The notes beneath the pieces are model-generated. The model was not told the origin of the DNA. It saw only the letters and a list, made by a program, of their open reading frames with translations, and did not search any database. A program made the position numbers and the translations under genes. This document shows positions 1 to 63,037 of a stretch of DNA of 64,000 bases, one piece after another. The stretch comes from Azolla caroliniana (taxonomy: Eukaryota; Plantae; Polypodiophyta). Every line of letters begins with the position of its first letter. Position 1 is the first letter of the stretch. Location: contig JBHGNT010000001.1 of NCBI GenBank assembly GCA_043228905.1, positions 28,024,001 to 28,088,000 on the forward strand. The letters are read 5' to 3'.

Positions 1-216
1 TTTAACCACTTTCACTCATCATTCGTGCATGCATAAAAGCAAAGTTCCACACATCCTATATGTCATTGATGTTGTAACTTGAACATGATACTTCTTCTAC
101 TCTTGATATGGCATTGATGTTGTAGGTCAATACTTCTTAAACTAGTGTTGTCATCGTACCCACTTTGAACAATATTCACACTTCCATCAATATGACTATC
201 CAATTTAGGGCCTAAC

Positions 217-656
217 TGTTGCCATTTTGGAACACGATCCGCAGTCAGTCCTTCAACCTAGACCTCAAAGTGGGTGTGGAACAACGAACAGGGGTTTAAG
301 CGTAATGCGTAAGGGAAGAACCCCTGTACCCTATCAACGTATAAGGGAAGACGGCTACAACCGAATCCCTATCAAGGGTTACACTTACGTACTTCAACGC
401 TTAAGTATTCAAGACACCCACACTGAATTAGTCGTAGCTATACATAGAAAATAAGAGAAGATAGAATTCTATTATCATGCGTTTCCTTACATTCCCAGAC
501 TTACATGCACCTCCATCAGAGGTTTTCTGCCCTTTATATATGCAGGGTCTAATTAACCGTTCACGCTCCCTTCGTGAACCGTTACATGCGTTATGCTCTT
601 ATATAATTTCTTATTCCTACGCTTTTGTCCGTCGGTTACTATTCCGGCGGACAACA
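217..656 (-). repeat. LTR of element A (left copy, 440 bp)
   Basis: TGTTGCC...ACAACA; aligns to 18012-18450. Confidence 0.95.
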
Positions 657-658
657 CT

Positions 659-675
659 TGGCACGCATGTGGGAC
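659..675 (+). promoter_or_regulatory. tRNA-Arg-like PBS motif TGGCACGCATGTGGGAC, 2 nt inside the left LTR
   Basis: Resembles the recalled TGGCACGCCYGGTGGGAC tRNA-Arg PBS of Tat-lineage elements. Confidence 0.7.
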
Positions 676-703
676 ACTGCCTTTGCACGTCAAACCCATC
701 CCG

Positions 704-2953
704 TTAATCTTCTTCCAAGATGGCCTGGATGTTCGGCTCTGTTGTGGTGACCTCGTTCGGAGGTGATGTAGGGCCCGTAGGTGCATCGTGGTGTGGCTCC
801 TTTGTTTGGTCGGGCTGGTTTCTCTCGGCGTCGCTGTAGCCGTGTGTGGGTGGTCCGGGTACGGTGGGCTCTTCTTGAGTTAGTGGGTTGGGCTCCGCCG
901 TTGTCGTGCTTGCATTCGGCTGCGGCTCTGCCTCCATTGTTACGTCCTCCGTGGTGTTGGCCGTTTTTGTATGTTCCTGGGAGTGGGGCGGAGATTCCAC
1001 CTAGTCCGCACCTTTCTCCACGTGGTCTGATGATAGTGTGGGCTCGTGCGGTTGGACCTCTTGTTGGGTAGTGGTTTCGCTGTCTGATCTCGTGGGGAAC
1101 TCCGCTCGTCGGTCCCCGCTATTCTCCATCGTTGTCATCTCTGGTGATCGGGCCTGAGGTTCTTCTTCTTCGGTTGTGGCCGGAATTGGCGTCGCGCTGG
1201 ATTCCTCGTTTGTGAGCGTGTTGCCGGCTTGTGTGATCTGGTGAAATAGCTCCTCCTGACTTTCACCATAATCATCTAAGAGCTGTGCGAGTTCTTCGGA
1301 GTGTTGGTCTGCTAGCGCACGATAGTCTTGCGCTAGGTCCTCCTGTACGGTCGCAATGCTCTCCTCATTTAGTTTATAGAAACCTTGACCGTCTTTTCGC
1401 CGGTTCTCCCAGTCCGCACAATACGCGTGCAATTCCGTTGCTTGGGTTGCCCACGCCATCCATCCTTTGTCCAACGCCGTTTTCAATTGCGCTGTGAACC
1501 TCTCCCGATTTGTTTGGAGAAGGATCCACACGTTATCTGTGATGGCCTGGCAACGGTTGCGTGCGTCTTCCATCGACTTCTGGAGATTTGCGATTTCCTG
1601 CTATTTAACGGTTGCCGCTTCCTCATACGTGGTCTTCAGGCCCGCCCACAGTTGGGATTCCTTTGCATGCTGTACTTCTAATTTCCCCATCTCATTGTTT
1701 AGGTGGATTTCGAGTTGATGCCTTCTGTCTTGTTCGACCACCAACTGCTCATCGAACCATACCTTCTTTTTTTCTAATAAGGCCCGAAGTCCTGCTATTG
1801 CCGCCTCCGATTTCTTTGCGTCCTCTCGTAATTGTGCGCTATCGTCCTTTGTTCGGATGTGCCGAGCTACCTCCGTAGCTAGTTTCTCTTCAAGAGTTTT
1901 TACTACCTTCCGTCCGTTAGCCCGTATCTCCTTTTCTCTGTCTCAGGATTGGCATAGTTTTGCTCGAAGACGGTCAATTTCGGATTCCGCTAGTTGCACG
2001 GCCCTTTTTGCTTTTGAGGCGATGGCAGTCTGAGCCTCGATTTCTTCTTTTAGAGCGTCGATTACGTGGTTCGGTGGCGGGGTTGCATGTTGTGCCGTAA
2101 TCGCGTGAGCTTCCAACTCCGCGATGCGTGCGTTGGCTTTTTGCAGTTCGGCTTCGGTCAGTTTAACCTTCTTCCAGACATTCTTATTTTTTATGGCCAT
2201 CTCCTTGGCGCCCGTGCTGACCTTTGCCAGTTCCCGATGGACTTCGACTAGGGCCGTGTTTAAGGGCGATATCTCCATCCCCACTCGCCGTACCTCGGCG
2301 TTCCTCTATCTGCCGACCCTGGCTAGCCGGTCCTCATCGTCGCTCTCTGTTGTTTGTGTTAGGGTGCGCTCGATCATCTGGCGTTCTGCATGCTCCTCGG
2401 CCATTCGTTGGGCGGCTTTGACCTTATGTGTTGCTAGGAACTCCATGAGCTCAAAAGAAGTACCGAACTGCAAGAGGGCGCTGAACTCGTGGGCCGTATC
2501 CGGGATATCCGGATATGCCAAAACCTCGCTTTCCGCTGTCAATACGGCTTTCCCTCGTTGGGACTGAGTCGTAATAATCGGTCGTGGCTCCCGGATGATT
2601 TCGAAGGTGGTATTCGGTTCCGCTGTTGCGGAGCCTTCGCCTTCGGTCGGTGTCTCCGTTGCCGTGGGGGCATTTTTTTACCAACCCCCGCCCATCTTTC
2701 CTGTCCAATCTACGTTGTTTGGTCTGGGGCTTTCTTGCAGTGTTTCGGTCTCTAGTTCTGGGGCTGCTTCCATGGAGCGTCTCGACTGTTCCTCCTGCGT
2801 TGTCCGTGTGTCCGGCTGGTCGGTAGGAGGTGTTGTCCTTGGGTCTGGCTGGGCCGGTTGGTGTTCCTCTTCCCACTCTGGGGCCGATAACTCCGCTAAC
2901 CTGCGTTTCGCGGATCGGGGCGGGGTCGTGGGTTGGCTGGGCTGCGGTGTTGG
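704..2953 (-). pseudogene. Long (about 750 codon) internal ORF of element A; Pro/Thr/Glu-rich ends, coiled-coil centre; interrupted by in-frame stops
   Basis: ORFs 2678-2959, 2306-2542, 1943-2284, 1001-1573 and 704-1000 are all in one frame, separated by single stops (2678, 2306, 1943, 1601, 1001) that each derive from CAA/CAG/CGA by C>T. Confidence 0.8.
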
Positions 2954-3462
2954 TGTCAAGAACTACACGCTCCCTATGCGCAACGCTCGGCCACAACCGA
3001 GCTTAGAATCATACACAGAAAATGGGAAGCGAAAGACACGACACAAAGGAGAGAAAGAGTACATAGGATGTTTAACGTGGAAAACCCTTAAAGGGAAAAT
3101 CCACGGGAGTCCACAGACTCCAAACTATCACTATATATGAATGTACAATGGTGGAGCATCGAGGCAACAACCTCGAGCTTGCTATCTTCGCCACAGTCGG
3201 TGGTTACAACAGAGATGCAAACTCTTCGTCTCTTTCTCTCTTTCTCTCTCTCTGTACAATGTTACGCGCTCTCTCTTCTTGCACCAACAAGAATGACAAC
3301 AACACTATCAAAAGTTTGCCCTAAGTCATATTTATACTAATATGACTTTTCGGCTATTTACAAATATAGCCATGATGGACTCTCAGAAACATATTTACGA
3401 ATATGTCTCTTCATCCAGAGAGCGCTCCTCACCGGGCCTACATCATCCGGATCTTGCCATGC

Positions 3463-3613
3463 ACTCGTCATCCGGTTCTGACCGGGTCTGCGCTATCCGG
3501 CTCTCCGTAGCCGGGTACTCCTCATCCGGTTCTCACCGGGTCTGCGCTATCCGGCTCTCCGTAACCGGGTACTCCTCATCCGGTTTCGGCCGAGGCCTAT
3601 CGGCCTCGGCCGA
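3463..3613. repeat. 54-bp tandem repeat (about 2.3 copies) plus 12-bp perfect hairpin in the U3 of LTR B
   Basis: Units start at 3463, 3517, 3571; TCGGCCGAGGCC-tatc-GGCCTCGGCCGA at 3586-3613. Confidence 0.85.
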
Positions 3614-3681
3614 GTTTGCTCATCAACATTGTTCTTCTCCCTTCCCATCCGGAGGGACTTGTTTCCTAACAAACTCCCCCT

Positions 3682-6600
3682 TCACTCCGGCATGGGATGT
3701 CTTACTAGTCCGACTCGCTTCCGGCATGCATCCAGCTTGTCGGGTATCAGTACTTTGGTCAGCATATCTGACCCATTCTCGGCTGTGTGGATCTTCGTCA
3801 GCGCGAACTCCTGGTCATCTACTCTTTCTCGGATCCAGTGATACCTTCGCTGAATATGCTTCGTTCGGGAATGGTAGGCCGCATTCTTAGCAAGGTGGAT
3901 GGCACTTTGCCTGTCGCAATAGAGCCGATATTCATCTTGCCGGATACCGAGCTCTCCGATGAAGTCCTTCATCCATAATATTTCCTTGCCAGCTTCCACA
4001 ACCGCCATGTACTCCGCCTCCGTGGTTGACAACGCAACCGTCTTCTGCAGCCTCGACTGCCACGAAACAACTCCCCCTTCATATGTCATTACATACCCGG
4101 ATGTAGATCGACTGGTATCCACATCAACCGACATGTCCGAATCGGTAAAACCGTCAAGTTGAGGTTTTCCGGAGCCGAATCGGAGACACATATGCGAAGT
4201 ACAGAAGGAGTATCAGGAAGTCGCCTCCTTCGAACTTCTTCACAAACACGCAGTGATCGGCCTACATCTTGTGGTACCCTTAATCGGCCATGAAGGAGTC
4301 GAACTTCCGGTACCATTGTCGGGGAGCCTGCTTCAGTCCGTACATGATCTTCCTCAACCGGCATACCAGGTGCTCCTTCCCTTTCTCCACGAATCCTTCC
4401 GGTTGTTGCATGTAGATCTCCTCTTCGAGGTCACCGTGAAGAAATGTCGTCTTCACGTGCAACTGCTCTACCTCAAGGTCCATGCTTGCCGCTATACTCA
4501 GCACCGTCCGGATGGAGGTCATCTTTACTACCGGGGCCAATATCTCGTCGAAGTCCACGCCCTTCTTTTGCTGGAACCCCTTCACCACGATCCTGGCTTT
4601 GTATCTCGGGGGGTTGCCGGCATCTCCCGGTTTCAACTTGTACACCCACTTATTTCGGAGTGCCCGCTTTCCTTTCGACAACTCCACCAATTCGTACATA
4701 TGGTTCTCATGCAGGGAATCCATCTCATCCTGCATGGCACTTAACCATTTGTGGCTGTGGGTGTCATCCTTCGCTTCTTCGAAGCTTTCTGGCTCCCCCT
4801 CATCGGTTAGCAGCACATGCTCTGCATCCGGAAATCTCCGGGGGGGCCTTCTCTCTCTAAGAGGATATCTCCGTCTCTGGGCTTCGGTAACCGGCTCCTC
4901 CATTTGCTCTTCATCCGAATCCGATTCGGGGTCTTGGCCGGTTCCGGTTTCAGCTTCCTCTACTTCTTCTTCTGCCGGTTCGGTATCCTCACCGTAACCG
5001 GCTGGTTCCTCAAGTGTTAACCGGTCTCTTGCCGGTTGGGTCTGCTCATCGTAGAATCGATCCTTATCGGTCGACTCAGAGTTTATTATCTTCTTCTCCG
5101 ACTCCCAGTCGGCGAGCATCTTGTCCTCCATGAAGATAATATCTCGACTCTGGAATATCTTCTTGTCGACCAGGTCCCACACTCGGTAGCCGAACTCATC
5201 GTCACCATAACTGAGGAATATGCATGGCCGGGTCTTTGGATCTAACTTTCCTCTCTGGTCCTTAGCTACATGCACATACGCGAGACACCCGAATACCTTC
5301 AGATGCCGATAGGACACTTCCTTACCAGTCCAGACTCTCTGTGGCGTGTCTCCATCAAAGGGTACTGAGGGTGAACTGTTTATCACATATGTCGTCGTCG
5401 ACAGTGCCTCAGCCCAAAACTTCTTGGGTAGTTTTGCATGCGCAAGCATACTTCGGACCCTCTCCATTATGGTCCAGTTCATCCTCTCGGCCAACCCGTT
5501 TAGTTGCAGCGTCTTCGGCACGGTAAATTCGAGCCGGATTCCCTTCGAGCGACAGTACTCCTTGAACTGCCCCTGGTATTCACCTCTGTTATCTGCTCGA
5601 ACCGCCTTCAGCTTCCGGCCGGTTTCTCTTTCCACTCTCGCGTGGAGCTCTTTGAAGACGGATAGCACCTGATCCTTCGTCTTCAATGGTGTGGCCCACA
5701 GCTTCCGACTGTGGTCATCTATGAACGTCACGAAGTACTGCGATCCGGCATGTGACTTCGTATCCACTTGACATACATCCGTATGCACCAACTCTAGTGG
5801 CGCAATACGTCTCATCGGTGGCCTGATCAGAAGGAGGTCCGGTTTTGTTTACCGACCAGACAATCAATGCACTTCTCCAAATGCACATTCTTCATTGGAA
5901 TGAGGTTGTCGTCAGCAAGCCTCTTCATCCCCTTCTCGCTCATGTGACACAGCCTCTTGTGCCACAACTCACCGGTAGTGTCGGATGCCACGTTCACTTC
6001 CTCCGAACATAACCGAGCATTCATCAGGTACAATGTGTTTACCTTCCGGGCCTGAGCCACAATCAGGCTCCCTTTGCTGAACTTCATGACACCGTTCCAG
6101 ATGCTACCCATGTAGCCTTCATCATCTAGCCGATCGGTTGATATCAGGTTCAGATGAACCTGCGGAACATGTCGGACATGCTTCAACAACATCTTGCAAC
6201 CGGTTGGTGTTGTCAACCACACGTCTCCTATGCCGACAATTCGGCATGTACCTTCATTCCCCATCCGGACACAACCGTGATCACCGGCTGTGTAGGATGA
6301 GAAGCATTTACGGTCCGGGGTACGGTGGAATGACGCTCCGGAGTCGACCACCCAGGTCATCTCGTCGCCGGCAAGGTTTATCTCACACTCCTCGGTGATG
6401 AGCATCAACTCTTCTTCACTCGTCGCGATTGCAGTCATTCCCTTCCGGTCCGTTCCCCTCCGGTCTTTACCGTTCCGGTCCGGTGTCCGCTTCGAATCGG
6501 TACCGTCGGTTTCCTTGTCTTTCCGGAAATGCCGACAGTTCTTCTGGAAGTGTCCCGGCTTGCCGCAATAAAAGCAAGCCGGTCTCCCCTTTGACTTTGA

Positions 6601-7269
6601 CCGTGTCCCCGACTTTTCCCGGTTCTGGGGATTATGGTTTCTTTGTCTTCCGCGTTCCGATTTGGTAAGGAGCGCTTTGGAGTCGGAGCTCGTATCTCTA
6701 TCTTTCCTACGCGCCTCCTCATATAGCAAGCTCGACTTTACTCTTGCTAGGGATAACCGTTTCCCTTCCGGCCCGGCGTTGCCCAAAGTGACAACCAACG
6801 TCTCCCAGCTATCCGAGAGGGAACCGAGCAGGAGTAGCGCTAGTACCTCGTCGGCGAGAGGTACTTCCAATGATGTAGCCTGGTGTATCAGCCCCTGGAA
6901 GGCATTCATGTGTTCCGCCATGCTGGAGCCATCTTGGTACCGGAGTCTTACTAGCTTCCGGAATACCGAAACCTGGTTAACAACATGTTTGTTCTGAAAC
7001 AGAATGCCGATCTTCTCCCAGAGCTCATGAGCCTTGCTCTCTTCATTGAAGTTGTTGTATAGGCTCATGTCGATGAAGCACCGTATGTACGTCGTTGTCT
7101 TCATGTGCATCACCTCCCATATCGTGGCGTCGATTTTGTCCGGTCTCTTGTCCCTGAACTGAACCGGCAACCAAAGATCTTTAACCACGAACATGTCCCT
7201 CATCTTCGACTTCCACACCGAATAGTTGGAGCCGGTGATCTTGAACATACCTCCCAACGAATCGTCCAT
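3682..7269 (-). pseudogene. gag-pol of copia B (gag, CCHC knuckle, protease, integrase, RT, RNase H), disrupted
   Basis: CFYCGKPGHFQKNC, WVVDSGASFH, LVHTDVC, YKARIVVKG, SWQSRLQKTVALSTTEAEY; frameshift near 5820, stop at 4280, internal deletion near 4200. Confidence 0.93.
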
Positions 7270-7574
7270 TTTCTGTGTCGTTTTGCTCTGATACCAATTT
7301 GTCAAGAACTGCACGCTCCCTATGTGCAACGCTCGGCCACAACCGAGCTTAGAATCATACACAGAAAATGGGAAGCGAAAGACATGACACAAAGGAGAGA
7401 AAGAGTACACAGGATGTTTAACGTGGAAAACCCTTAGAGGGAAAAACCATGGGAGTCCACAGACTCCAAACTATCACTATATATGAATGTACAATGGTGG
7501 AGCACCGAGGCAACAACCTCGAGCTTGCTATCTTCGCCACAGTCGGCGGTTACAACAGAGATGTGAACTCTTCG

Positions 7575-7618
<44 letters not shown>

Positions 7619-7700
7619 CACTGTTACGCGCTCTCTCTTCTTGCACCAACAAGAATGACAACAACACTATCAAAAGTTTGCCCTAAGTCATATTTATACT

Positions 7701-8030
7701 TGTTGAGCGGCAAGCTCAACCGGAGCCGGATCGACTGAATAAGCCGGAGCCAGTAAGCGAGACGGATCGGGCGAAACGGATCGGTATGACGGTGAGCAAC
7801 CGAACCGGCAAGCAGTGGAGGCCGGGTGCAATCCGTAACCGGCAGTCCAATCGGAAGCCTAGAATAGGATAGACTACTAGGTATTTATAGTCTCGTAGTA
7901 AGTGTCAGATGCTCGTGTGAGCATCGAAGTACATGGTACTTCTGTCAATCCCAAGAGGACTTGTATAAATAGTGCTACTTAGCACAGTGTGTAAACACAG
8001 AGTCTTGATATAATTTTGAAATTGTGTTCT

Positions 8031-8068
<38 letters not shown>

Positions 8069-11000
8069 GTTCTCTGTTTTACGCTTCCGCAAACACTTAC
8101 GTTTACATGGTATCAGAGCGCGAGGGTTGAGAACCTCTGCTGCAGACATTTACTCTTGAGAAGAAAACCCTAATAGGTCGAAAACAGACACAGTAGAAGA
8201 CATGGATAGAGGCATGGCTACGTCGCTCCCGGTAGAGAAGCTCGACAGGAGCAACTACGCATCCTGGTCTTACAAGATGCACCAGTGCCTGCTTGGACAC
8301 GAGTACTGGAGTTATGTCGAAGGAGCGAATGATGCGGCGCCAGACTCGGCACACAAGGACTTCCCGGTATGGGAACAAGCGGCAAGCAGGGTGATGTACT
8401 GCTTCGCATCTAGTGTCGGCGATCAGCTGCTCAGCCACATCCGTGACGCCAAGACACCGAAGGATGCTTGGGGGAACCTGAAAAAGGTTTTCGCCACAAG
8501 CACCACTGCCCGGAAGCTGCAACTTAGACAGGAGTTGAGCAATGTTCGACAGAAGAACATGTTCGTAGCAGACTACACGGGCCGGATAAAGGAGATATGC
8601 GACTCTATCAATGTTACCGTAGAGGAAGACGAGATGGTGCAGGTATGTCTCGGAGGCCTGGCGTCCAAGTTCGGAGCGTTCCGGACTGCGGTGTGTACAA
8701 GGGAGAATACCCCCTCATTCTTCGACTTACAGTCGATGCTCCTTATAGAGGAGAACCACGCCGGTGCATCTACCAGTGCATCCCCGGACATCCAAATGTT
8801 GTACACGGGAACGGATTGGTTCCGTGGGCGTGGTGGAAGAGGTGGGTCGGCACACAATGGAGGCGGCCGGCAAGAGCAGGAACGGAGGCACTATGAGCGT
8901 GCCGACAGCAGTTCCGGGACTTCCACAAGCAGGGGGAGTCAAGGCGGTGCCGGAAGCCGACAAGACAAATCCACTACGGAATGCTGGTATTGTGGCAAAA
9001 AGGACCACTGGAAAAGCGAGTGTTGGAGAAAGCGTGCCGATTCGGACAAATCCGGATCCGGCAAGACCGGTAAGGATGGCCGGCAAAACTCGCACTACGC
9101 AAACGGATCAGAAGGATCCGGAACCGGAAAGGCCAGTAAGGGGCCAACCTTGGTGATGAATCACAAGGCAAACTCAATGAAGAAGACCACTTCCAAAACG
9201 GAGGAAGTGTGGTATGTTGATTCCGGCGTGTCGAACCACATGACGAGCCACAAAGAGTGGTTCTCCTTTCTGGAGAGACCGGATCAACTAGGAGTAGTCG
9301 AAACCGGAGAAGACACTCCACACCCAATCGTGCACGTCGGAGAAGTCCCTCTAAGCCACGTCGGACAGAAAGGGAAGCTGATGAACATGTTACACGTTCC
9401 GACGATCACGAAGAACCTGGTGTCCGTCGGTCAAATTGTCGACCAGGGGATGCAGGTCCGGTTTACGCACCTCGGGTGCTTCATTGAGGATGAAGGCGAA
9501 GTCATTGCGCAAGGGCGCAGAGACGGGAGGATGTTTATCCTCAACACCAATGACTTTGGCACCGCTCTGTTCGCGAATCGATAGAAGGTCGAGTCGGACA
9601 TCGACCTGTGGCACAAGCGGATAGGCCATGTCAACTACCGGAGGCTTCAAGATCTGCAAACGAAACAAGTTGTTTTCGGTTTGCCGAAGTTCAGCGGCCG
9701 GAGAGCCGAAATTTGTGAAGCCTGCCAACTTCGGAAGCAACATCGGCTTCCATTCCCCACCGAATGGAACCAGAGCCGTAACAAGCTCGATCTCATCCAT
9801 TCGGATGTGTGGGGACCGGCACAAAGTGTAAGCCTTGGCGGGAGCTGATACTTCGTCTCCTTCATCGACGACTATACTCGGCATACTTGGATCTACCTCA
9901 TTGAGCGGAAGAGCGAAGTCTTCGACTGTTTCCGGAGCCTCCAGAAGATGGTGGAACGGGAATCGGAGAGGAAGATCAAATGCCTTCGGTCGGATGGCGG
10001 AAAGGAATATTTTTCCGGCCAATTCACTAGTTATCTGCAGCAGAAGGGAATTCGGCGAGAGTTCAGCTGCAGATACACACCGGAGCAAAACGGTGTGGCC
10101 GAAAGGAAGAACAGGACACTCGTCGAAGCGGCAAGGACAATGCTGGAGGAAAAGAGCATGCCCCGGTTCTACTCGTCGAGGCGGTCCGGACGGCCGTCTA
10201 CATACAAAACCGCATTGGTGACAAGGTGTCAGCTCATGAGCTGTATTTCGGGCGCAAGCCGAACTTGACACACCTTCGGATATTCGGGCAGCATAGCATA
10301 TGTGCATGTGTCGGATCAGAAGCGGAGAAAGCTGGATGCAAAATCGGAAAAATGCATCCTAGTCGGCTATGCTCAAGAGCAAAAGGGGTATAAGTGCTAT
10401 AACCCCCGGACGAAGGAAGTTCGAGTTAGCCGGGATGTCGAGTTCGATGAATCGACATCCTGGTATTCCGTACCCACTCCAACTTCTGATCCCGACCCAA
10501 TGTCGGAAGATCAGGCCAGTGAGCATGAATCAGCCCTGGCAGATGATGATGATGCAGGGACTCAAGATGAGAGTCCAGAATCGTTACGGTTGAGTGGACC
10601 GAACGAGCGACTGAGTCGGTTGGACCAGTCGGATGAAGAGACGACAAGTGGTGGAGACTCTGCCGTGCTCTCCCCGCGCAAGGAACCGAGGAAACGGTTC
10701 ACGCGCAAAGAGAAAGGGAAAAGGAAGATGCCGGAATTCGAAACCGGCAACGATGAGTCGGATCGGTGCGTATCCGACTCCGGAAAGGAGAAAGGCAGAT
10801 CTTCGGCAACGAAGACCGAACTGGCCAAGAAGGGCCTCAAATCAGGTGACGGTGCGTTGCGCCGATCAACCCGTCAGAAGGATCCCGTCGTGCGGTAGGG
10901 GTACAATGAATACATGGCGCATCATTATGCGTACATGACTAAGGTGACAAAAGTGTGCGAGCCGGAGAGCTACGCAGAAGCGGCAAAGGACGCAAATTGG

Positions 11001-13429
11001 CGTGCCGCTATGGACGAAGAAATGCGGGCACTCAATGCCAACGAAACTTGGGACCTAGTTGATCCTCCCCGTCATTGTAAACCTGTCGGATGCAAGTGGG
11101 TGTACAAGGTCAAGTACAACGCCGACGGTTCTGTTAACCGGTACAAAGCCCGGTTAGTGGCGAAGGGATACGCGCAGACCCACGGAATCGACTACGATGA
11201 GACCTTCGCTCCTGTGGCGAAGATGACGACGGTTCGTGTGGTATTGGCGGTTGCTGTGGCAAGGGGGTGGCATCTTCACCAGATGGATGTGAAGAATGCC
11301 TTCCTTTAAGGAGAGCTTGAAGAAGAAGTCTTTATGACTCAGCCCCCTGGATTTCACTCGGAGATGAACAAGTCGGCAGTATGCTGACTGAAGAAGTCGC
11401 TTTACGGCTTGAAGCAAGCCCCTTGAGCCTGGAACACGAAGATCACGCACCGGTTGCGTAAGCTGGGGTTTGCTGTCTCTAAGTCGGACTCTTCATTGTT
11501 CATCCGGCAAGGCTCTGACGGTCCGGTATGTATACTCTTGTATGTGGATGATTTAGTCATCACCGGAACGGGTCTTCCCGAAATCAACCACGTCAAGTCC
11601 CAGTTGTCGGATGCATTCGAAATGAAGGACCTGGGGGACCTTCATTATTTTCTTGGGATCGAAGTGATCCGGACCCCCGATGGCATATTGCTCTCACAAC
11701 GACATTACGTGTTGAATATGTTGTTTAAGTTCGGCATGATGGATTGCCGACCTGTCTCCACACCCCTGGACCGGAACCAGAAGCTCCGTCCCAACTCCGG
11801 ACCGGCCTGCAATGAGAAACGGTTCCGACAGGTTGTGGGAAGTCTGATCTACTTAACCATCACCCGACCCGACATCAGCTATCCGGTCGGCATGGTAAGT
11901 CAGTTCATGCAGAAGCCGACCGTGGAGCACCTTCAATGCGCGCAACGAATATTACGGTATGTCAGCGGCACTAAGGACCGGGGACTGCTATACCGGCGAG
12001 GTATACCCGAAGAGCTTGTCAGTTACACAGATGCTTACTGGGCCGACGATGCGTCTGATCGCCGCTCCACTTCCGGATACATGTTCTCCATAGGTAGCGC
12101 GGCCGTTGCGTGGAGCAGCAAGAAGCAGCCCACAATGGCTTTGTCAAGCACTGAGGCTGAGTACCGGGCCGCTACCGTTGCCACCATTCAAGCCATCTGG
12201 CTTCGGCGACTGCTGCAAGACTTGCGAATCGAGGTGCCGACCCCGATCCCGATTTACTACGATAACATGAGCAGCCTGCAGCTCGCCAGGAACCCTGTGT
12301 TCCATGCTCGCACAAAGCACATCGAGGTGCACTACCACTGCGTGCGTGAGCGGGTCCTGAGCGGTGAAGTTGACCTACGGTATGTTCATACGGATCGGCA
12401 AGTTGCCGACATCTTCACCAAGCCGCTCGGATCGGACAAATTGCAGCACTTTACCGACATGCTTGGTATTCAACATCTCGACGTGCCGCACTTGAGGGGG
12501 AGAAGCAAGGGCAAAGTCTCTACCGAAACTGGCAAAGGCAAAAAAACTATTGAATCCATCGGTAAGAGGAGAGCCGGAAGAAGAGGAGACAAGAAGACTC
12601 GGAAGTGGTCCGATGTGGTGAGAGGCCTGAAGTCGGAAGTCGAATCGGAGTGTACCGATTCGGACAAGAGCTGGAACGAGTCGGAGACAGCTGACTCGGA
12701 TCAACAGATGGACCCGGATGAGTCGGATCGACTGAAGGCCAAGGGGACACGAACACAACGGAAGTCGATGCCATCGTGGGAAAACCAACGGATCGGCAAG
12801 CGCCGGAGTCACAGCAACGTGACTGCTGAGATGGGCCTATTGAGCAGACATGCCGACCGAGAGGGTCGAGGCGCGCAGAACCAAAGGGGTCGCGGCAAAC
12901 GGGACCGGACCGGACGAGGAGCGCGAGCAAGGTGGAGTGACGCCAGGAGAAGTCGGTTGAAAGAACCGACTGCCACAGAGGTCGACACTACGACCCCACC
13001 TCAGGTTTAGCTTGAGGGGGAGTGTTGAGCGGCAAGCTCAACCGGAGCCGGATCGGCTGAATAAGCCGGAGCCGGTAAGCGAGACGGATCGGGCGAAACG
13101 GATCGGTATGACGGTGAGCAACCGAACCGGCAAGCAGTGGAGGCCGGGTGCAATCCGTAACCGGCAGTCCAATCGGAAGCCTAGAATAGAATAGACTACT
13201 AGGTATCTATAGTCTCGTAGTAAGTGTCAGATGCTCGTGTGAGCATCGAAGTACATGGTACTTCTGTCAGTCCCAAGAGGACTTGTATAAATAGTGCTAC
13301 TTAGCATAGTGTGTAAACACAGAGTCTTGATATAATTTTGAAATTGTGTTATGCTCTCTCTGTCTCTGTCTCTGTCTCTGTCTCTCTGTTGTTCTCTGTT
13401 TTACGCTTCCGCAAACACTTACGTTTACA
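7701..13429 (+). mobile_element. Ty1/copia element C with two 407-bp LTRs but no TSD
   Basis: LTRs 7701-8107 and 13023-13429 (TG..CA); PBS TGGTATCAGAGC 8108-8119; PPT GAGGGGGAG 13014-13022; flanks ATACT vs GAAAG. Confidence 0.93.
8202..13010 (+). pseudogene. gag-pol of copia C, disrupted, with C-terminal extension
   Basis: [60 protein letters not shown]; stops at 9582, 10896, 11307 and a frameshift near 10175. Confidence 0.93.
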
Positions 13430-16400
13430 GAAAGCCGAAGATGAATGGGGAGCGGGGTCAAAGCAGACTTGGCCGATTGCATGTTGAAGCGTTCCAAGAC
13501 ACGTCCAATGTAGTCGATTTGAGACAAAAAAAGTTGTCTTTTGGCGCGATTCCGACTAATCTTCATTCCGAGTATGTGTCTTGTCGGACCGAGGTCCTTC
13601 ATGGCAAACTTCAATCGCAGTTTCCGAACGAGTTCGGTGAGCTCTCCGGTATGCCGACCGAAGAGTAGCATGTCGTCCACGTAGATGATGAGGAAGACGG
13701 GAGAACCGTCTTGAGCGGTTTTGGTGAAGAGGCAGTGGTCCTCATCGCTCTTGGAGAAGCCGACCGACTGGATGAAATCGTCGAACTTCTTGTACCACTG
13801 TCAGGGTGCCTGTTTCAGGCCGTAAAGACTCTTCCTGAGTCGGCAGACTAGATGTTCCTGACCGGTGGCCACAAAGCCTTTCGGCTGCTCCATGTAGATT
13901 TCCTCCTGTAGATCACCGTGGAGGAATGCCGTTTTCACATCTAGCTGAATCAGCTCCAAATTGTTGGCAGCCACAACACCGAGCATGAAACGAAGGGTTG
14001 TCATTTTCACCACTGGTGAAAAGATTTCGTTGAAGTTGATGCCATATTCCTGTCGAAATCCCTTCGCAACTAATCTGGCCTTGTACTTTGGGGTGGTCGA
14101 GTCAGACGTCTCCTTTAGTCTATAGACCCACTTGCAAGGAAGAGCACGTTGATTCTTCGGTAAGTCGACCAGATCCCAAGTCTTGTTGGCGCAGATGGAG
14201 TGCATTTCCGACTCCATTGCCAGATGCCAGGTGGCTGAATCGGCAGCTGCCGATGCTTCTTCGTAGGACGTCGGTTCGCCGGCGTCGGTGAAGAAAATTC
14301 CGGGAGAGTACCTCTCCGGAGGTTGCGACAATCTCTCGGATCTTCGAGGTATGACTGGACTGGTCACACCGGGTGTCGATGTCGGATGGTCAAAAGCCGA
14401 GCCATTCGGCTGTGCCGAATCTGTGGATTCGGTGCGAGAGAGGTCGATTACCCGTGAAACCGGTCTCGTGTTGTGTGTTGGGCCATCATGAAGGGTTGGC
14501 ACTTCGAAAAATATTACCCTTTGGATTTCAATAGGCCTTTCGGCCGTTTTGTGCATAGTCAACTCGTTGAACACGACGTCCGAACTTCGGACGATTTGCC
14601 TGTGCTCGGGGTCCTAGAGTCGGTATCCGATCTCGTCGTCGGGTCCATACCCGAGGAAAACGCATTTCCTTGATCTCGGTTCGAGTTTTCGGCGATCGTC
14701 TTTCGGTATGAGGGCGTATGCCTCGCAACCGAAAATCCTCAGCTTGTCATAATTCGGCTTTCTGCCGGTCCATATTTCCTGAGGTATCTTAAGTCCTAGA
14801 GGTCTACTTGGCGACATATTGATTATGTGTACTACCGTGAGTAGAGCCTCTGCCCAGAAGCCATCCGACAGTCCGGAGTGTTGGAGCATGGATACAACGT
14901 GTTCTTGAATCGTCTGATTCATGCGTTCTGCGATTTCGTTCTGCTCCGGACTATATGGTGTCGTATATTCACGTCTAATACCGCGTTCTCGGCAAAATTT
15001 GACGAATTCATCAGATTTGAACTCACCTCCATTGTCGGTTCGGAGACACTTTAGTTTCCGACCGGTCTGGTTTTCGACCATTGCGAGCCAATCTGAGAAG
15101 ATCGAGAACACCCGATCTTTGGTTCTGATGGGGTAAGCCCACACCTTCCGAGTCGAGTTGTCAATGAAACTGACGAAGTACGAGGCACCACCGAGTGACT
15201 GATGTGGCATCGGGCCACAGACGTCCGAGTGGACCAAATCGAGCGGGCTCGACTCTCTTGGTTCTGATGTCGGGTGTGATGTAGCTACCTGTTTGTCGTA
15301 CTGGCAATGCTCGCAAAACTAATGGTCCGAGAAGGAGAGTTTCGGGATGTATTCGGCTCTGGATAGGTGCGTGATGCCGGCCTTGCTGAGGTGTCCAAGT
15401 CGTCCATGCCTAAGGATGACACAGGGATATCTACCAGAAATAAGTCACCCTCTCTGAGTGTGACATACAAAGGGTACAATGAGTGTACCTTTGGTCCTCT
15501 CGCAAGCAGGAGGTTCCCTATGTGGAGTGTCCACCCTCCTGATGAGAAACCAGCACGGATGCTAGCTTCATCAAGTTGTCCGACTGAGATCAAGGGTCGT
15601 GAGAGCTCAGGAACGTGTCGGACGTTGTGTAGTACGAGTGTAGAGCCACCCGGAAGGTTGAGCTCTACGGTGCCGATTCCGATGATAGCACAGTGATGCG
15701 AATTTCCGACCCGAACTGAGTCGGAGTGCCAGTCCGAATATTGTTGAAACTGTGATCGGTGAGGTGTCACGTGATATGACGCGCCCGAGTCCAGAAGCCA
15801 TGTGCTCGATTCCTCAGTCGTAAGCAGAACTTCTGATTCGATTGGATTCTCTATGGACAATATGTTCGGGTCGGTCGTCAATATCTTGGCTGAAGAGCCG
15901 ACGTAGTTGACTTCCTCATGCCGGTTACTCCTCTGATCAGCTCTCTGAGCTTTGTTTGTCCTTGACTTGAGTACCCAATAGTCGGCCTTGATGTGTCCTA
16001 GTTTCTTGCAGTAGTTGCAAATTCGGGTTTCCAAGGACTTGCTGCGGCTTCGCTGATTTGTCAGCGGTCGGAAGAGCTTCTTCCCCGGTTGTTCGATCGG
16101 TCGGTCGAACCTTGTACTACATAGGCTTCTTCTGCCGAGTCTTTGGTGAAAGACTTTCTCCGAGCTGCTTCAGTCAGGATTGCACTTGTGACTTCGGAGT
16201 ACTTGATGGCAGTCGTAGAAGCATTGCACACAGTTGTAACGAAGGTTTCCCAAGAGGAGGGAAGACTGCTCATGAGTATCATTGCTCTGAGTTCATCCTC
16301 GATTGTCGTCCCCTGTGACGAGATTTGGGAGCTCAAACTTTCGTACTCGTTAAGGTGTGCCTGAACCGAATCAGAGTCTTTCATCCGCAAGTTGTAGAGG

Positions 16401-16723
16401 CGCCGGATCAAATACATCTTCGTTGAGGCGACCTTCTTTTCGTAGGTTTCTGACAGCTTCTTCCAAAGTTCGAAGGCTGTCATGCACGATTGCACTATGA
16501 AGTACACTGAATTCGACAGGTGCATCCAAATCGTGGCGCTGACGATTCTGTCCAGCTTCTGCCACTCATTTGCCTTGTATATTTTTGGAGCAATTTCATT
16601 CTCAATCGGATCGATCTGACCCTTGACTATAAGATAGTCCTGCATTTGCTCCTTCCAAAAATTGAAGTTCGAACCGTCGAACCTCCTTAGACTCATTTCC
16701 GATGAGCCGGATGTTGATGCCAT
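13430..16723 (-). pseudogene. gag-pol of copia D, disrupted and truncated
   Basis: [52 protein letters not shown]; several frameshifts and stops. Confidence 0.9.
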
Positions 16724-17754
16724 CAGATTCGGTTTCGGTTGACGAAGCTCGGTTTGGAGTTGACTACGAACTTTGTTGGAGTGCAGCCGATCGGATCGGC
16801 TCACCCGATATCGTTCTAGTCGGATTTGAACCCGAGTCGGTTTGGTTTTGGATATATGTATTGTTGAACTTGCTCGAATTGACTCCGGTAACTTGAGGGA
16901 CATAACCGACTGGTCTCCTGGAATGTTGCCGAGTCGGAGTGAGCCCAGTTCGCTTCCGGATATATATGCCAAATACCGATTATTGAAGCCGATTGTCTGG
17001 ACCGATTCTGCTTCGGGTGACTGCAGTGACGAGAGAGACGAATCCAATTGATCCTCCCGAATGTCGATCAGTCGGATGAAGCACAAATTGGGGTTGTTGT
17101 CTTGAGACCGATCTGCACCGAGTGGTTACAACGGGCGGCGAGTAGCGTTCGGTGACCTGTTCGGATGCCGTTTAACCGAGTGGAGCACGATCGTGTCAAT
17201 GTTGCACAAGGGGATTTCACCTTGAGCGGTTACGATCACGAGGAACAGAGTACAGCCGACTGGCTTACTCCAAGAGAAGATGATCTAACGCGATGAGATG
17301 CAAGCCTCGTTTTTCTTCTTCTTCTCTCTTCTCTGTTTCTTCAAATACAAAACAGAAAAAAAGAGGAATGTTGTGATCCAAAGATTCGAATGGCGGCCGA
17401 CAGCGGGATGAAGGACATCCAAGCTCTGATACCAAATGTAGGGAATGAACAAGGCCGTCAGTGCGGAAGAGATCACATAGTATGATACTGTGAGGAAGAA
17501 AATATCTGCGTATGAGAAAGGCAAGAACAAAATACGTACAGAGAGAGAGAGAGAGAGAGAGAGCGAGAGGCACAAAGAATATCTATATTCACAAAAGGGC
17601 AACAACTCTATCAATGAACAACCAACCTTTACAAAAAGGTTACAAAGTCACTATATATAGTGACTCACTTAGGGCAACTGCCCTTTAAGTTATTTATAGA
17701 AATAGCCCGAACTTAGGCTCTCTAAGAGGATAGTGTGAATACGTCCATTATACA
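13430..17754 (-). mobile_element. Ty1/copia element D (Tnt1/Tork-like), 3' half of RT, RNase H and 3' LTR missing
   Basis: 5' LTR about 17437-17754 (TGTA..TACA); Met-i PBS 17423-17434 (minus); sequence ends abruptly at the LTR of C inside RT (SALTPLPIHLRLS). Confidence 0.88.
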
Positions 17755-17957
17755 TTTGTATTCGATAGTGAGCGTGGTCCCCGCGTCTCGTCGAGGTATT
17801 TGGGGAGCGAAGGATCCCCTTTGCACTCACGGCAGGTAGTACTGAGGTCGCTGAGGCGCAGCTTTTGCCATGCGCGTTCTTCTGCCTGGCGTGTGACGGA
17901 CCTTGTTATTGGCCGGTCTTGTCGTGTTGGTTCTCTGGGTCGTTTGCGGCTAAACAT
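17755..17957 (-). pseudogene. N-terminal fragment of an element-A ORF (MFSRKRPREPTRQDRPITRS...), cut by the LTR of D
   Basis: ATG about 37 nt downstream of the minus-strand PBS-like motif; open until the D LTR boundary. Confidence 0.5.
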
Positions 17958-17993
17958 CCATTCGTTGTTGCTCGTCTGTGAGGAAACACAGAT

Positions 17994-18007
17994 CACCAAG
18001 TGTGCCA
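17994..18007 (-). promoter_or_regulatory. Second tRNA-Arg-like PBS motif TGGCACACTTGGTG, 4 nt inside the right LTR
   Basis: 12/14 match to the recalled TGGCACGCCTGGTG; both mismatches are transitions. Confidence 0.6.
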
Positions 18008-18011
18008 AAAG

Positions 18012-18450
18012 TGTTGCCGTTTAGGAACACGGTCCGTAGTCAGTCCTTCGACCTAGACCTCAAAGTGGGTGTGGAACCACGAACAGGGGTTTAAGCGTAA
18101 TGCGTAAGGGAAGAACCCCTGTACCCTATCAACGTATAAGGGAAGACGGCTACAACCGAATCCCTATCAAGGGTTACACTTACATACTTCAATGCTTAAG
18201 TATTCAAGACACCCACACTAAATTAGCCGTAGCTATACATAGAAAATCAGAGAAGATAGAATTCTATTATCAGGCGTTTCCTTACATTCCCAAAATTACA
18301 CGCACCTCCATCAAAGGTTTTCTGCCCTTTATATATGCAGGCTCTAATTAGCCGTTCACGCTCCCTGCGTGAACCGTTACATGCGTTATGCTCTTATATA
18401 ATTTCTTATTCCTACGCTTTTGTCCGTCGGTTACTATCCGGCGGACAACA
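18012..18450 (-). repeat. LTR of element A (right copy, 439 bp)
   Basis: Aligns to 217-656; followed by TSD CTAAC. Confidence 0.95.
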
Positions 18451-19560
18451 CTAACCTTCAACTTTGATAAGAGCCTCAACAAATAGAAAATGATTACTCT
18501 TCAGATATGGGCTACCATCTTATCGATGAGATTTTGAATATAATGGTCGACATCTAGTTTGCCCTAGGCTATACTATGTATGGATGCCTCTTCTTCATTG
18601 TTTGTTTGCCACACTACCCATTATTGGTTTGTTGGGAATATGAATGAAAATTTCAAGTTTACCACACCCATGCAATACATAACCTTGCCACCCTTAACAT
18701 CTAATGTCTTTGTCATGTCTACCCACCCCAATCACCTCCCTTCTTATACCGCCATCCTTAACATCCCCCAATGTCACCGTCTTTGCACTACCATTATCCA
18801 AACCTTCCACATCCTTTGTTCCATCCCAACCTCTCAATCTCCCCAACCACCCATCAACCAATGTTCTCAAAGATTTCCTCTCCACTTAGTACATATTTCG
18901 TTAGTTGGCTATCTAGTTTTGGGCCAACCTTTTAAGATAGCCCACCCAATAGCCCAAACCTTGAATCAATTAACCCATTTACTTCTTACACATCTACACA
19001 GTGGACATAGAAGTCTGTGAATGAGCACAAAACATGTTGACAAATCCACATCATGATGATTTACACAAAAAGAAGAATCACGAGATCAAGATACATATTA
19101 TCATCTAGTCGTGGCCACTAGAGAGTTCTCGTGGGAGTTCTAAATCACATATGCTATGAACAACCATAGTTAGATGAGAGTCTTGTAATGAGTGCGAATC
19201 CTCGAGAGTGAACTGGCTCTCACACAAGCAACCAAAGCACTACATTGAGGAGAAGAATGAAATGACCCGGATAAGACGACTACGTGATGTAACACTATGT
19301 TGGTGAATTTTATTGGCTATATGATACATGGTCACGATCTCTTAGAGAGTTTTCTCTGGACTCCGAACGAACCATTCTATCCCATGGTTGTTAATAATCC
19401 CTAGACGAATTGATAAATTTAGTTCTCTGGATATTAACAATTTCCATTTCTTGCTTTTCTTTTGCTTCGTATCGAAATCGAGTACATAATAAAAAGCAAA
19501 AACAAATAACAGTCCGCCTCCACAATGTTTTTCTATGTTCTTTTCACAGGGTGGCTCAGA

Positions 19561-22600: not shown

Positions 22601-25600
22601 TATGAGCATTCACTGCTTCAATGGCTGGATATTAGATGCATTGGCTCCACTAGCATTTGGTGGGTACCTTTGCAACTCCCTTGACTGTACTTAAGTAGGA
22701 TCTTTAGGTGAGTTTCACCTAAAAGTGAAGGCTTATCCCCAACACTACTATCTGTAAGTTTGCAGATCTCACCATAAAACGCTTCTTTGTGAAAAAGACT
22801 AACTAGAAGACATCCCATATAATATTCAAGTTTAATCAAGAAAATGTTACACTTACGGAAGATGAAAGCCATAGTGTAAATGGGCTCGATAAACAAAAGA
22901 GTTCTGAAAGGAAATAAAGAAGCATGCACTAAGTGAAAAATTTGAAGTGAGGAAATGGGCAATATGGATCATGCAGATGACATGTATGTCAACTCCTGGG
23001 CCATGTGTAGTGCATATGTACGCTTGGCAGGAGATTTGTCCAAACTTCATTTATGCATCCAGATTTTAGGAATTATATTCTTGCATGAATGCCTCTCTTA
23101 AATATTGCTACTTGCCTGATGCTGAGTACCATTTGCTCTAGGCAGTGCAGTCTATAGCAGCTGGACTCTATTGTCCTATATAGGCAGGGGATGAGTTTCC
23201 CACAACTCTGATAAATTGTACAAAAGATCACGATTAATGGTGCTGAGAGAAATTAACTTTTGTCAAATTTTTTCATTGTTATAGCGACTTAAAAGGATTA
23301 TTTCTGCAGATAAAGTTGGCTATGATCTAATGCATAACGCTTTGGATAAACTAATGGGATGATGGAGATTTTGGCTATGCTAAATTGCTGTTTCAAAATG
23401 TTCCATATAAAACATGTTTTGTAAACTGTTTAAAAGGCATGCTTTTGTTAGCCTTCTCATCAATTCATGGATAGGGTCTGATCTTATCTTTTAATGGTTT
23501 CATAGCAGAATTAACATTATGGCTGCTCACATATGTGCAGAAATTAGCATTTTAATGTCGACTCAGATACCCTTTGTGTTTCCTGGATCATTCTTCTTTC
23601 TGTAGTTTTCTGATTTTTATTCAAATATATTAAGAGTTCCAGGGGTGTGAAGCATTTGGGCGAATCTGAGCATTGTTTCTTCATCTTATTCTCATCTCTC
23701 GTATTACTTTTTGGGTGAGAGAGAGAGTTTCAGTTCAATTCATTAATGATGGTGTAATTGTGGTTCTTGGTACCCCTCACATTGCAAAGGTGGCTTCACC
23801 TAGTGACTTGGCAGGACAGTCATGCACAACTCAGTGATGGATTAAATTGTCATTTCCTGATTTAGTTTGTGGGTTATTCTATTTCTAATATTAAAGAGGG
23901 GCTCTTACATGTGAGAAGAGAATAATTGGGTGCCACATTCTTTAACCGTGTTTATGAGAAAAATATGACCATAAAGTGCTTTAAATTTCTAATCTTCTTC
24001 CTCTACTTGTATTTAGTAGTAAACTTCTATTATTCTATTTGATGTAGGTGCATCAGGATAAGGAAACTGGTGATTTTGATGCTTTGACGAAAGGTAATTT
24101 ATTCACAAATGGGATACGTTTTTATTATGATTATACCCCTTATATTCAATAAAAAGGGAATGACTGGGATTCCTTACGCTAGCTTCTCTATAGATATGGT
24201 TATATTGGATGAATTCTACATTTAGATCAAGGAATGTTTGAATAGATATAAATGATGTTTGTTATATTTTGAAAATATAATATACACTTACTCATGGTTA
24301 AGATGATTATGTATATGATGGCAAGTTTTGCTAGAGGTTGACAGAGATGAAAAGAAAATGTCCAGCTGACTGATAAGGTCATACACAAGGGTTGGTATAA
24401 AGCCATTCAGTGGTCTATGTGAGCCCCTGAATATTAGAATCTGAAACTGTAAAAATGGAGAAGAGTAGCATATACTAGAAAACATTGCTCTGCTGCCATC
24501 CTTGCTGGAAACAATAGGCTGTTTCTAGTGGGTGAAATGTTAGATATAATCAATGATCAGCCCCAAGTTGTAAATCTATCCCCATATGTGCTCTTAGAGT
24601 GCACATTTTGTGATAGCGCCCCAAATGAGGAGCGGCTAGTGTGCAACTCGACCATATGGGTCAATAAGGTGTTAATCTAGGAAACCGTAGATGCGTAGGA
24701 CACAATATATTTAGGAAAGAGAGAAATAGATAAAAGGATTGGCTAATCAAGTCAGCTAGAATATTTTGTGGGCAAGTTACGATGTACTTAGTCTTGAAGT
24801 ATGCGTCATTGACTTCAAGATAAGTATTATCTAGCACTAGCCTGTACCTAGGGAGTTGGGTCATATTAAATGACAAGTCAGTTGACAGAAAAGGAATATC
24901 TCCACTACTGTCAACTGACTTGCACATTTATACTAAGACCAAACATAGATTATAAGTGACTTTTCTCACACAGTGGTCAGATTGATCATTAGTCCCCACT
25001 AATTTTGTAGTGAGCCGGTCCATATCCTATCTAAGCTCTAAGGTGTGAGCGCATGGGAAAACTACCATTTTGAACTACTCTCATATGTAATAGAAATTCT
25101 GTTTTCATATATCCATCTCCGCAGTTGTAACTCTATATACCTATCTACTCGATTCTCAATATTTCTAATATGGTATCAGAGCGAAGAGGTTGATCTAGAT
25201 TAGGTATATACGGGTAGTTGCTGTCTAGCAACAGAGAGAAATAGAGAGAGAGAGAGAGAGAGAGAGAGTATCAATGGCCTTGTCCACGAATGTTGCAGCT
25301 GCTCCATTGCGCATTCGCCCACCTCCATTGTCTGATGGAAAGCTAGATGGAACCAACTACACTCTATGGAAGTTCAAAATGTCTGCCATTTTGGATTCCT
25401 ACGAGTTGTTGGAAACAATCATGGGACCCACAGGGGGAGACCCTGAGCCCATGGCAACCTTTGACCCTGCACACCCTACCACATCAATTCCTCCAAATGC
25501 TGATCTACTTCGAGCCTGGAAGAGAAGGAATGCTGATGCGCTATGTACCATAGTCACCGGTGTATGTGACTCCGTACTAACACTAGTGCAACATACAACT

Positions 25601-53425: not shown

Positions 53426-54037
53426 TTGCAAAGGGCCCGGTTTCGGATCAAACCGAACCGAACCAAAAAACCGTGGCTTAACGGTTTATAGGTTCAAAGA
53501 TAAAAAAATGGTTTGGTTTGGTTTCAAATGTTACTAATCGGTTTCGGTTCGGTTTTGAATTTACGATTTATCGGTTTCTGTTTATGTGGTTCAGTTTAAA
53601 TGTTTATAGGTTAAAAAATACTCAAAAATATTCTCTATATGTGGAGTCTCTCCTTTTCATTTATGATGATCAATTATGATAAGTATGATGATCAAATTTA
53701 TGATAAGTATAATGATCAACTTTATGATATGTATGATGACAAAATTTATGATAAGTATGATGACAAAACTTATGATGATTTTCTCGCACAAATTTATAAT
53801 AAGTATGATGACAAAACTTATGATGATTTTCTCACACAAATTTATAATAAGTATGATGATTAATATCAATAAAAAATGGTTTGGTTTTGATTTATAATAA
53901 ACCGGTTTGGTTTGGTTTAAATGGCTTCATAAATTTTAAAAACAGTTTGGTTCGGTTCTTATTATTAATAAATGGTTTGGTTTGGTTTCAAGGCCAAGAA
54001 ACCGAACCAAACCGAAACCGAACCAGGTCCATTGCTA
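53426..54037. mobile_element. Non-autonomous hAT element (MITE), 612 bp
   Basis: 8-bp TSD ATGTCTCT (53418-53425, 54038-54045); imperfect TIRs 13/17; subterminal AACCG/CGGTT arrays. Confidence 0.85.
53661..53860. repeat. TATGAT-based minisatellite inside the hAT MITE
   Basis: Repeats of about 24 bp (TATGATAAGTATGATGACAAAATT) and a 48-bp higher-order duplication. Confidence 0.85.

Positions 54038-54763: not shown

Positions 54764-63037
<8,274 letters not shown>

Follow-up and report, generated by a model that had tools for sequence, protein, structure and literature searches.

Analysis of a 64,000-nt stretch of the Azolla caroliniana genome (assembly GCA_043228905.1, contig JBHGNT010000001.1, positions 28,024,001 to 28,088,000 of the forward strand; hereafter the window) revealed a long terminal repeat (LTR) retrotransposon of the Ty3/gypsy group, element A, in which the position of the polypurine tract (PPT) in front of the 3' LTR is occupied by a sense copy of a tRNA 3' end. 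This arrangement is kept throughout the family of the element. The best-supported reading of the sequences, held with an even chance of being correct, is that both strands of the complementary DNA (cDNA) may be primed by tRNA.

A tRNA-type site in place of the polypurine tract

Tentative tRNA-type motifs had been placed 2 and 4 nt inside the two LTRs of element A in a preliminary description of the window, and both positions were confirmed. The left motif (TGGCACGCATGTGGGAC) starts at 659 on the plus strand, 2 nt (CT) past the end of the left LTR at 656, and the right motif (TGGCACACTTGGTG) starts at 18007 on the minus strand, 4 nt (CTTT) inside the start of the right LTR at 18012. The left motif is real and had been reported too short, as it forms part of a 43-nt site (657-699). 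Purine counts bear out the further statement that a PPT is lacking at both inner borders of element A and present in the copia elements B, C and E of the window: 8 of the 15 nt before the 3' LTR are purines, and no run of purines within 45 nt is longer than 5, whereas copia B, C and E carry tracts of the GAAGGGGGAG, GAGGGGGAG and GAGGGGG types. Across the family the site follows one order, namely tRNA positions 49-58, an insert of 13-14 nt, positions 59-76 without nt 66, two purines and TG. The 8-mer TGGCACRC occurs three times in the window against 2.18 expected, and 36 of 100 shuffles reach 3; since the 8-mer alone is at chance level, the case for the site is made by its position and its conservation in relatives, which exceed chance.

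Orientation and anatomy of element A

By its sequence, element A is a Ty3/gypsy element on the minus strand, because its relatives encode a polyprotein followed by an extra open reading frame (ORF) on one strand. With this orientation the right motif is therefore an ordinary 5' primer-binding site (PBS), and the left motif stands at the PPT position. Regarding membership of Ty3/gypsy, paired TG...CA LTRs (440 and 439 nt, 19 mismatches, Kimura two-parameter distance 0.045) and a target site duplication (TSD) are present, and the exact TSD described earlier was found as CTAAC on both outer sides.

The earlier view of the structure needs correcting in that the interior is not intact: element C has no TSD and the gag-pol region of element A is gone. 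What survives of the interior is the minus-strand ORF at 704-2953 and 259 nt adjoining the right LTR, with copia B inserted into the extra-ORF remnant at 2953/2954 and copia D inserted about 200 nt into the presumed gag start. The LTRs of element C are 97% identical and its neighbours differ (the LTR of B on one side, the pol of D on the other); because its flanks ATACT and GAAAG differ, it is likely that two C-family copies recombined, deleting the gag-pol of element A with a loss of several kb. The window copy, its gag-pol deleted, is linked to its family via the extra ORF, the LTR end and the 5' region, and both of its ends belong to one family, because the 259-nt right piece matches the 5' regions of the loci L011 and L006 (73-74%).

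Relatives and their coding capacity

Scoring of 7990 candidates yielded 12 homologs of the extra ORF (P0002-P0013), whose alignment retrieved 53 loci (L numbers) that share one accession-number series and are not fully independent. The reverse transcriptase (RT) and RNase H (RH) of coding-competent relatives, to which attention had been drawn at the outset, lie in an intact polyprotein of the order gag, protease, RT, RH and integrase (GAG-PR-RT-RH-INT). This order was found in L032, L033 and L047, with the protease motif identified by eye; in L032 and L033 the polyprotein has 1797 aa and the extra ORF lies downstream on the same strand, and L033 has the 5' LTR, PBS, polyprotein, extra ORF, site and start of the 3' LTR on one contig. 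The catalytic D-E-D-D residues of RNase H are present in the polyproteins P0014, P0015 and P0139.

Regarding lineage markers, no Chromo match was obtained in L032, L033, L047 and L005, while the neighbouring control element in L005 has one, and the complete 1797-aa polyprotein gave no RVT_3 or RNase_H match (E<=0.1) that would indicate an aRH domain. Past the 3' LTR of the relative, locus L005 contains a chromodomain Ty3/gypsy element in opposite orientation (7741-12368, minus strand). In an RT-RH tree of 116 rows, built without labelled REXdb references, the three rows known to carry the site fall in a clade of seven rows with support of 100, whose neighbours are RTs of liverworts and ferns, with 13 mostly named angiosperm rows placed separately.

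The extra 3' ORF has 800-1075 aa in the relatives and is 26-34% identical between distant subfamilies, and its remnant in the window is acidic and, by composition, predicted to be coiled-coil-like; neither the remnant nor the homologs gave a meaningful Pfam match. It has a conserved N-terminal domain of about 170 aa, basic clusters resembling nuclear localisation signals and a conserved C-terminal block, and the Atlas gave only leads below 0.9, among them a sub-threshold one of the N-terminal domain to the plant mobile domain (PMD; 0.80). Viral contigs scanned with the extra-ORF alignment gave 0 relatives. The single match of the junction pattern in these contigs (L054) was a chance phage match, and the single distant element obtained with the RT alignment (L057, 35% identity) was not used.

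Conservation of the site across the family

The C-terminal block of the extra ORF is contained in 23 loci, and 16 of these reach the LTR; the others end inside the block (L002, L013, L027, L034, L042, L046) or are interrupted by other DNA (L048), and L038 and the loci that stop short of the block were also left out. The site is present in all 16 loci that run from the end of the extra ORF to the LTR without deletion, in decayed form in L053, and the deletion derivative L038 retains only its last 10 nt. Checking of sibling copies for a PPT showed that none carries one and that the 3' site is kept family-wide: in the 15 loci tabulated there are 8-9 purines per 15 nt and purine runs within 45 nt reach at most 3-4, and L053 was judged by eye. 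In L003, L005, L012 and L029 the site precedes an LTR that is followed by a flank other than a PBS, and these LTRs are therefore true 3' LTRs. Between distant subfamilies the site is 70-90% identical, compared with 28-52% for the 60 nt upstream and 30-50% for nt 10-70 of the LTR. The ordinary 5' primer site was found in eight loci and in the window.

In public sequencing runs (two organisms and a leaf metagenome) the interior of element A is covered tens to more than 1000 times deeper than the flank, which suggests a high copy number of its family, the figure being a coverage ratio and not a count. Contigs from all four runs, aligned to 610-740, span the junction of LTR and site. The window letters A667, C677, A692 and A693 are minority letters in the four runs, where another single letter accounts for 82-98% of the depth; the majority letters are nearer to the tRNA or close the hairpin of the insert, that at 667 being the tRNA-matching C. 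Other differences listed within 659-675 reach at most 11% of depth. The loose ends listed at the LTR edge (6-21 contigs per run) agree at just 0.37-0.46, and such low agreement fits, as expected, mixed genomic flanks and not a PPT-bearing sibling. Loose ends behind 664-666 in the runs X4 and X9 represent a subfamily with two changed T-stem letters and the hairpin kept.

tRNA identity and predicted pairing

The proposed match of the motif to a tRNA 3' end was borne out, the site and the motif matching tRNA-Arg(TCT) 3' ends of a proxy gene from a bacterial metagenome-assembled genome and of a second gene, neither being the tRNA of the host. The proxies were found with a pattern taken from the motif itself and a T-loop consensus, and the Arg(UCU) assignment suggested by these alignments is likely, though not independent of the motif. 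ARAGORN detected no tRNA in the window and, among the 53 loci, a tRNA-Phe in one and no tRNA-Arg.

The insert between tRNA positions 58 and 59 forms a hairpin with a 4-bp stem, of which two pairs are changed on both sides across the family; 97.6% of 126 cells are paired, against 39-55% in slid controls. The T stem of the site, in contrast to the covarying hairpin, has 0 compensatory changes in its five pairs and retains the exact letters of the tRNA. The site is broken at position 58/59 of the tRNA; 1-methyladenosine at position 58 (m1A58) ends the 18-nt primer sites of retroviruses. The insert and the changes at position 55 presumably interrupt a would-be B box of RNA polymerase III, in the window (690-699) as well as in the relatives. 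Minus-strand DNA of the site is predicted to fold alike in 4/4 relatives, leaving free the 10 nt complementary to tRNA positions 67-76. With RNA parameters applied to what would be an RNA-DNA hybrid, the 28 3' nt of the proxy tRNA pair with the minus strand of the site at -43.6 to -51.8 kcal/mol (15 loci; window -36.1) and with the 5' PBSs at -35.6 to -38.2 kcal/mol (window -26.7), the background being -20.3 +/- 4.3 kcal/mol with a minimum of -39.8 (n=1198).

Proposed priming of the plus strand and alternatives

Since a tRNA 3' end fills the place of the PPT and its CCA lies 2 nt from the LTR, the plus-strand primer probably ends in the copied CCA, whether this primer is a second tRNA or a tRNA-shaped RNA of the element itself. 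That a second host tRNA-Arg(UCU) may anneal to minus-strand DNA and start plus-strand synthesis, with tRNA then priming both cDNA strands, is a reading for which we have moderate confidence; it is favoured because the T stem is exact while the hairpin covaries, because most changes at 49, 67 and 68 would still allow wobble pairs, and because the site breaks at 58/59. The changes from G to A at these three positions would be G-T wobbles in pairing between tRNA and minus strand. This part of the preliminary interpretation, priming of both strands by tRNA, thus stands as the best supported.

In such a pathway, minus-strand synthesis would start in the usual way from tRNA-Arg(UCU) at the 5' PBS, and RNase H would clear the RNA after strand transfer. 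The minus-strand DNA would then fold into a stem, leaving the 10 nt complementary to tRNA 67-76 as a toehold to which the second tRNA could bind, and pairing could extend via positions 59-65, past the looped-out hairpin, to positions 49-58. Extension of the CCA end of the tRNA by RT would begin the plus strand with RG-TG, the RG being the usual 2-nt overhang trimmed by integrase.

Several points weigh against a second tRNA, in addition to the use of RNA parameters for these duplex energies. In each subfamily, tRNA nt 66 has to bulge out for the duplex to form. All four bases occur at position 55, and the change at 68 in L012 is not a wobble. The predicted minus-strand folds are no stabler than shuffles (z -1.13 to 0.52), and the decayed copy in the window does not take the shared fold. 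Wobbles in the hairpin go both ways, L004 fitting the minus strand and the 677A variant (about 10%) fitting the sense RNA, and the bias from G to A is also a product of cytosine deamination and can be decay. The covariation control, in which 0/500 shuffles paired as highly as the hairpin, ignores the relatedness of the loci; these may, given their single accession series, stem from one or few hosts, and the isotype match is partly circular because the proxy search pattern derives from the motif.

The main alternative, which we regard as a possibility to be held tentatively, is that a tRNA-like RNA of the element itself may serve as the primer. Cleavage by RNase H right behind the copied CCA would leave a fragment of the genomic RNA, shielded by a T-arm-like fold, and DNA synthesis would start from the last ~10 nt of this fragment, making the site a tRNA-shaped substitute for the PPT. 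Retroviral RNase H has a specificity for tRNA removal, which would be re-used here. The canonical pathway would be retained, and the loss of nt 66, the free position 55 and the change at 68 in L012 would cost nothing, since such an RNA is bound to match the cDNA copied from it. In most loci the T stem forms in the folded sense RNA, the 677A variant makes a G-U pair in sense RNA only, and the 2-nt spacer suits an own-RNA primer equally well. However, the fold would have to beat a perfect RNA/DNA hybrid. In addition, position 49 is an A in the family of the window (no variant at 699 among those listed), which breaks the end pair of the T stem and wobbles with the real tRNA, and an own-RNA primer leaves unexplained why the T stem keeps exact tRNA letters beside a covarying hairpin.

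It is improbable that the site instead acts by pairing with the 5' PBS of the same element, or by otherwise shaping the genomic RNA for circularisation or minus-strand self-priming, with plus-strand priming elsewhere. Any site in sense orientation is necessarily complementary to the PBS, and in L032 the predicted self-duplex (-29.6 kcal/mol) equals the tRNA-PBS duplex (-29.4); however, a C-A mismatch in L001, L004, L006, L007 and L011 makes the self-duplex about 10 kcal/mol weaker (-21.7 versus -31.2 for tRNA-PBS), the PBS is in register with the tRNA nt 66 that is missing from the site, and the unique 3' (U3) end of the LTR would be left without any primer.

The second part of the preliminary interpretation, replication from transcripts of either direction with the left motif as PBS of an antisense genome, is unsupported and very unlikely. 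The left motif does score as a better PBS than the right, and the window LTR has TATA-like boxes on both strands, but in all relatives gag-pol shares its strand with the extra ORF, which fixes the orientation, the two sites differ in build, and in the LTR of L033 a TATA-like box is confined to the sense strand; an antisense cycle would moreover still be without a PPT and so come down to priming of both strands by tRNA. That the window copy represents a one-off rearrangement or a chance match, with its rearranged interior (C without TSD) and its 8-mer at chance level, has a negligible probability given the same junction in 16/16 relatives and 4/4 sequencing runs and the match of both inner ends of element A to one family.

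Features of element A and of the rest of the window

Table 1. Parts of element A and of the elements nested in it (window positions)
Feature	Position	Strand	Remarks
TSD CTAAC (left)	212..216	n/a	same 5 nt outside both LTRs
Element A 3' LTR, TG...CA	217..656	-	sense-strand TATA-like box of the element, 117 nt into the LTR
2-nt purine spacer between CCA and 3' LTR	657..658	-	AG in this copy; family members have AG or GG
Sense copy of tRNA-Arg(UCU)-type positions 59-76	659..675	-	ends in CCA, without nt 66; would be primer site on the plus strand (minus-strand cDNA)
Hairpin insert between tRNA positions 58 and 59	676..689	-	4-bp stem, covaries across subfamilies; minority letter at 677 here
Sense copy of tRNA positions 49-58 (5' strand of T stem and T loop)	690..699	-	alignment to tRNA-Arg(TCT) proxy
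Remnant of extra 3' ORF	704..2953	-	5 internal stops; N-terminal ~170 aa gone
Nested copia B, inside extra ORF	2954..7700	-	PBS 7296, PPT near 3673-3685; 5' LTR cut at 7700
Nested copia C	7701..13429	+	LTRs 7701-8107 and 13023-13429; flanks ATACT and GAAAG
Nested copia D, 3'-truncated, within gag start of A	13430..17752	-	PBS 17434; outer LTR end 17752 placed from sequence
Likely gag start of A	17753..17957	-	73-74% DNA identity to 5' regions of L011 and L006
Ordinary 5' PBS, 14 nt	17994..18007	-	predicted tRNA-Arg(UCU) pairing with G-U wobbles; one mismatch in window copy
Element A 5' LTR	18012..18450	-	LTR pair alignment
TSD CTAAC (right)	18451..18455	n/a	outer flank of 5' LTR

Outside element A, the window contains copia E (24538-29997), which is very young (1 mismatch in 633 nt between its LTRs, TSD TGAAA) and whose LTRs appear to end in TA and not CA. 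Regarding further features, a 930-aa ORF (47160-49952) with an EDR4 zinc-ribbon domain has two weak, distant homologs, one of them from the fern Adiantum (28% identity), a 24-nt tandem repeat with copies 64-88% alike lies at 53650-53865, and a malectin-domain exon at 59540-60106.

Comparison with known elements and significance

The comparisons below refer to the parts of PMC5371799 and PMC6317226 that were consulted. Yeast Ty3 (PMC5371799) shares with element A and its relatives the LTRs, the tRNA site after the 5' LTR, the GAG-PR-RT-RH-INT order and an extended or bipartite pairing that uses the T arm of the tRNA. In Ty3, however, the second segment of the PBS has antisense orientation relative to the tRNA and is used in priming the minus strand, whereas the 3' site of element A is sense to the tRNA and stands in the place of the PPT.

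Among plant elements (PMC6317226), Athila, a non-chromovirus classed as OTA, resembles the lineage of element A in having no chromodomain and no aRH, a 5-bp TSD, an extra 3' ORF and a single polyprotein ORF, and differs in its tRNA-Asp, Asn or Ala primers, compared with the Arg(TCT)-type site and the missing PPT of element A, whose extra ORF has no match to Athila ORF-1. The Tat clades TatIII, Ogre and Retand share the tRNA-Arg primer site, 5-bp TSD and extra ORFs, but Tat is defined by aRH, which was not detected in the lineage of element A, and that lineage has no PPT. Phygy and Selgy are likewise non-chromoviruses of non-seed plants without aRH; they have a 4-bp TSD, tRNA-Trp or Ala primers and no extra ORF, in contrast to the 5-bp TSD (one copy), Arg-type site and extra 3' ORF found here. 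Thus, the lineage resembles plant non-chromoviruses and does not fit Tat, Athila, Phygy or Selgy as these are tabulated in PMC6317226.

A PPT before the 3' LTR is typical of most Ty3/gypsy members and is not group-defining. Minus-strand priming is known to vary, by whole tRNA, half tRNA or self-priming (PMC5371799; PMC6317226), and the consulted parts of PMC6317226, which distinguish three types of primer for the minus strand, name nothing that would stand in for the PPT. No account of a PPT being replaced by a tRNA copy was found in the literature searched, which lies outside most subscription journals, and the per-element PBS table and fasta of PMC6317226 could hold members of the lineage; the portions seen of PMC11963269 and of bioRxiv 10.1101/2022.12.06.519325 have nothing on a tRNA copy at the PPT. 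We regard the site as a conserved, mechanistically surprising feature and as a new form of Ty3/gypsy replication.

Such elements would be overlooked or turned round by annotation tools that depend on a PPT or infer the orientation from the strongest PBS match. The 43-nt site together with purified RT makes priming directly testable. Either of the two leading models, a second tRNA or an own tRNA-shaped RNA, would if true set the U3 end in a new manner, and it is rather likely that one of the two applies. For retroviruses and LTR retrotransposons the rule is taken to be priming of the plus strand from a PPT, and a lineage of high copy number that lacks a PPT while its RNase H motifs are intact indicates that the plus-strand priming step can be rewired.

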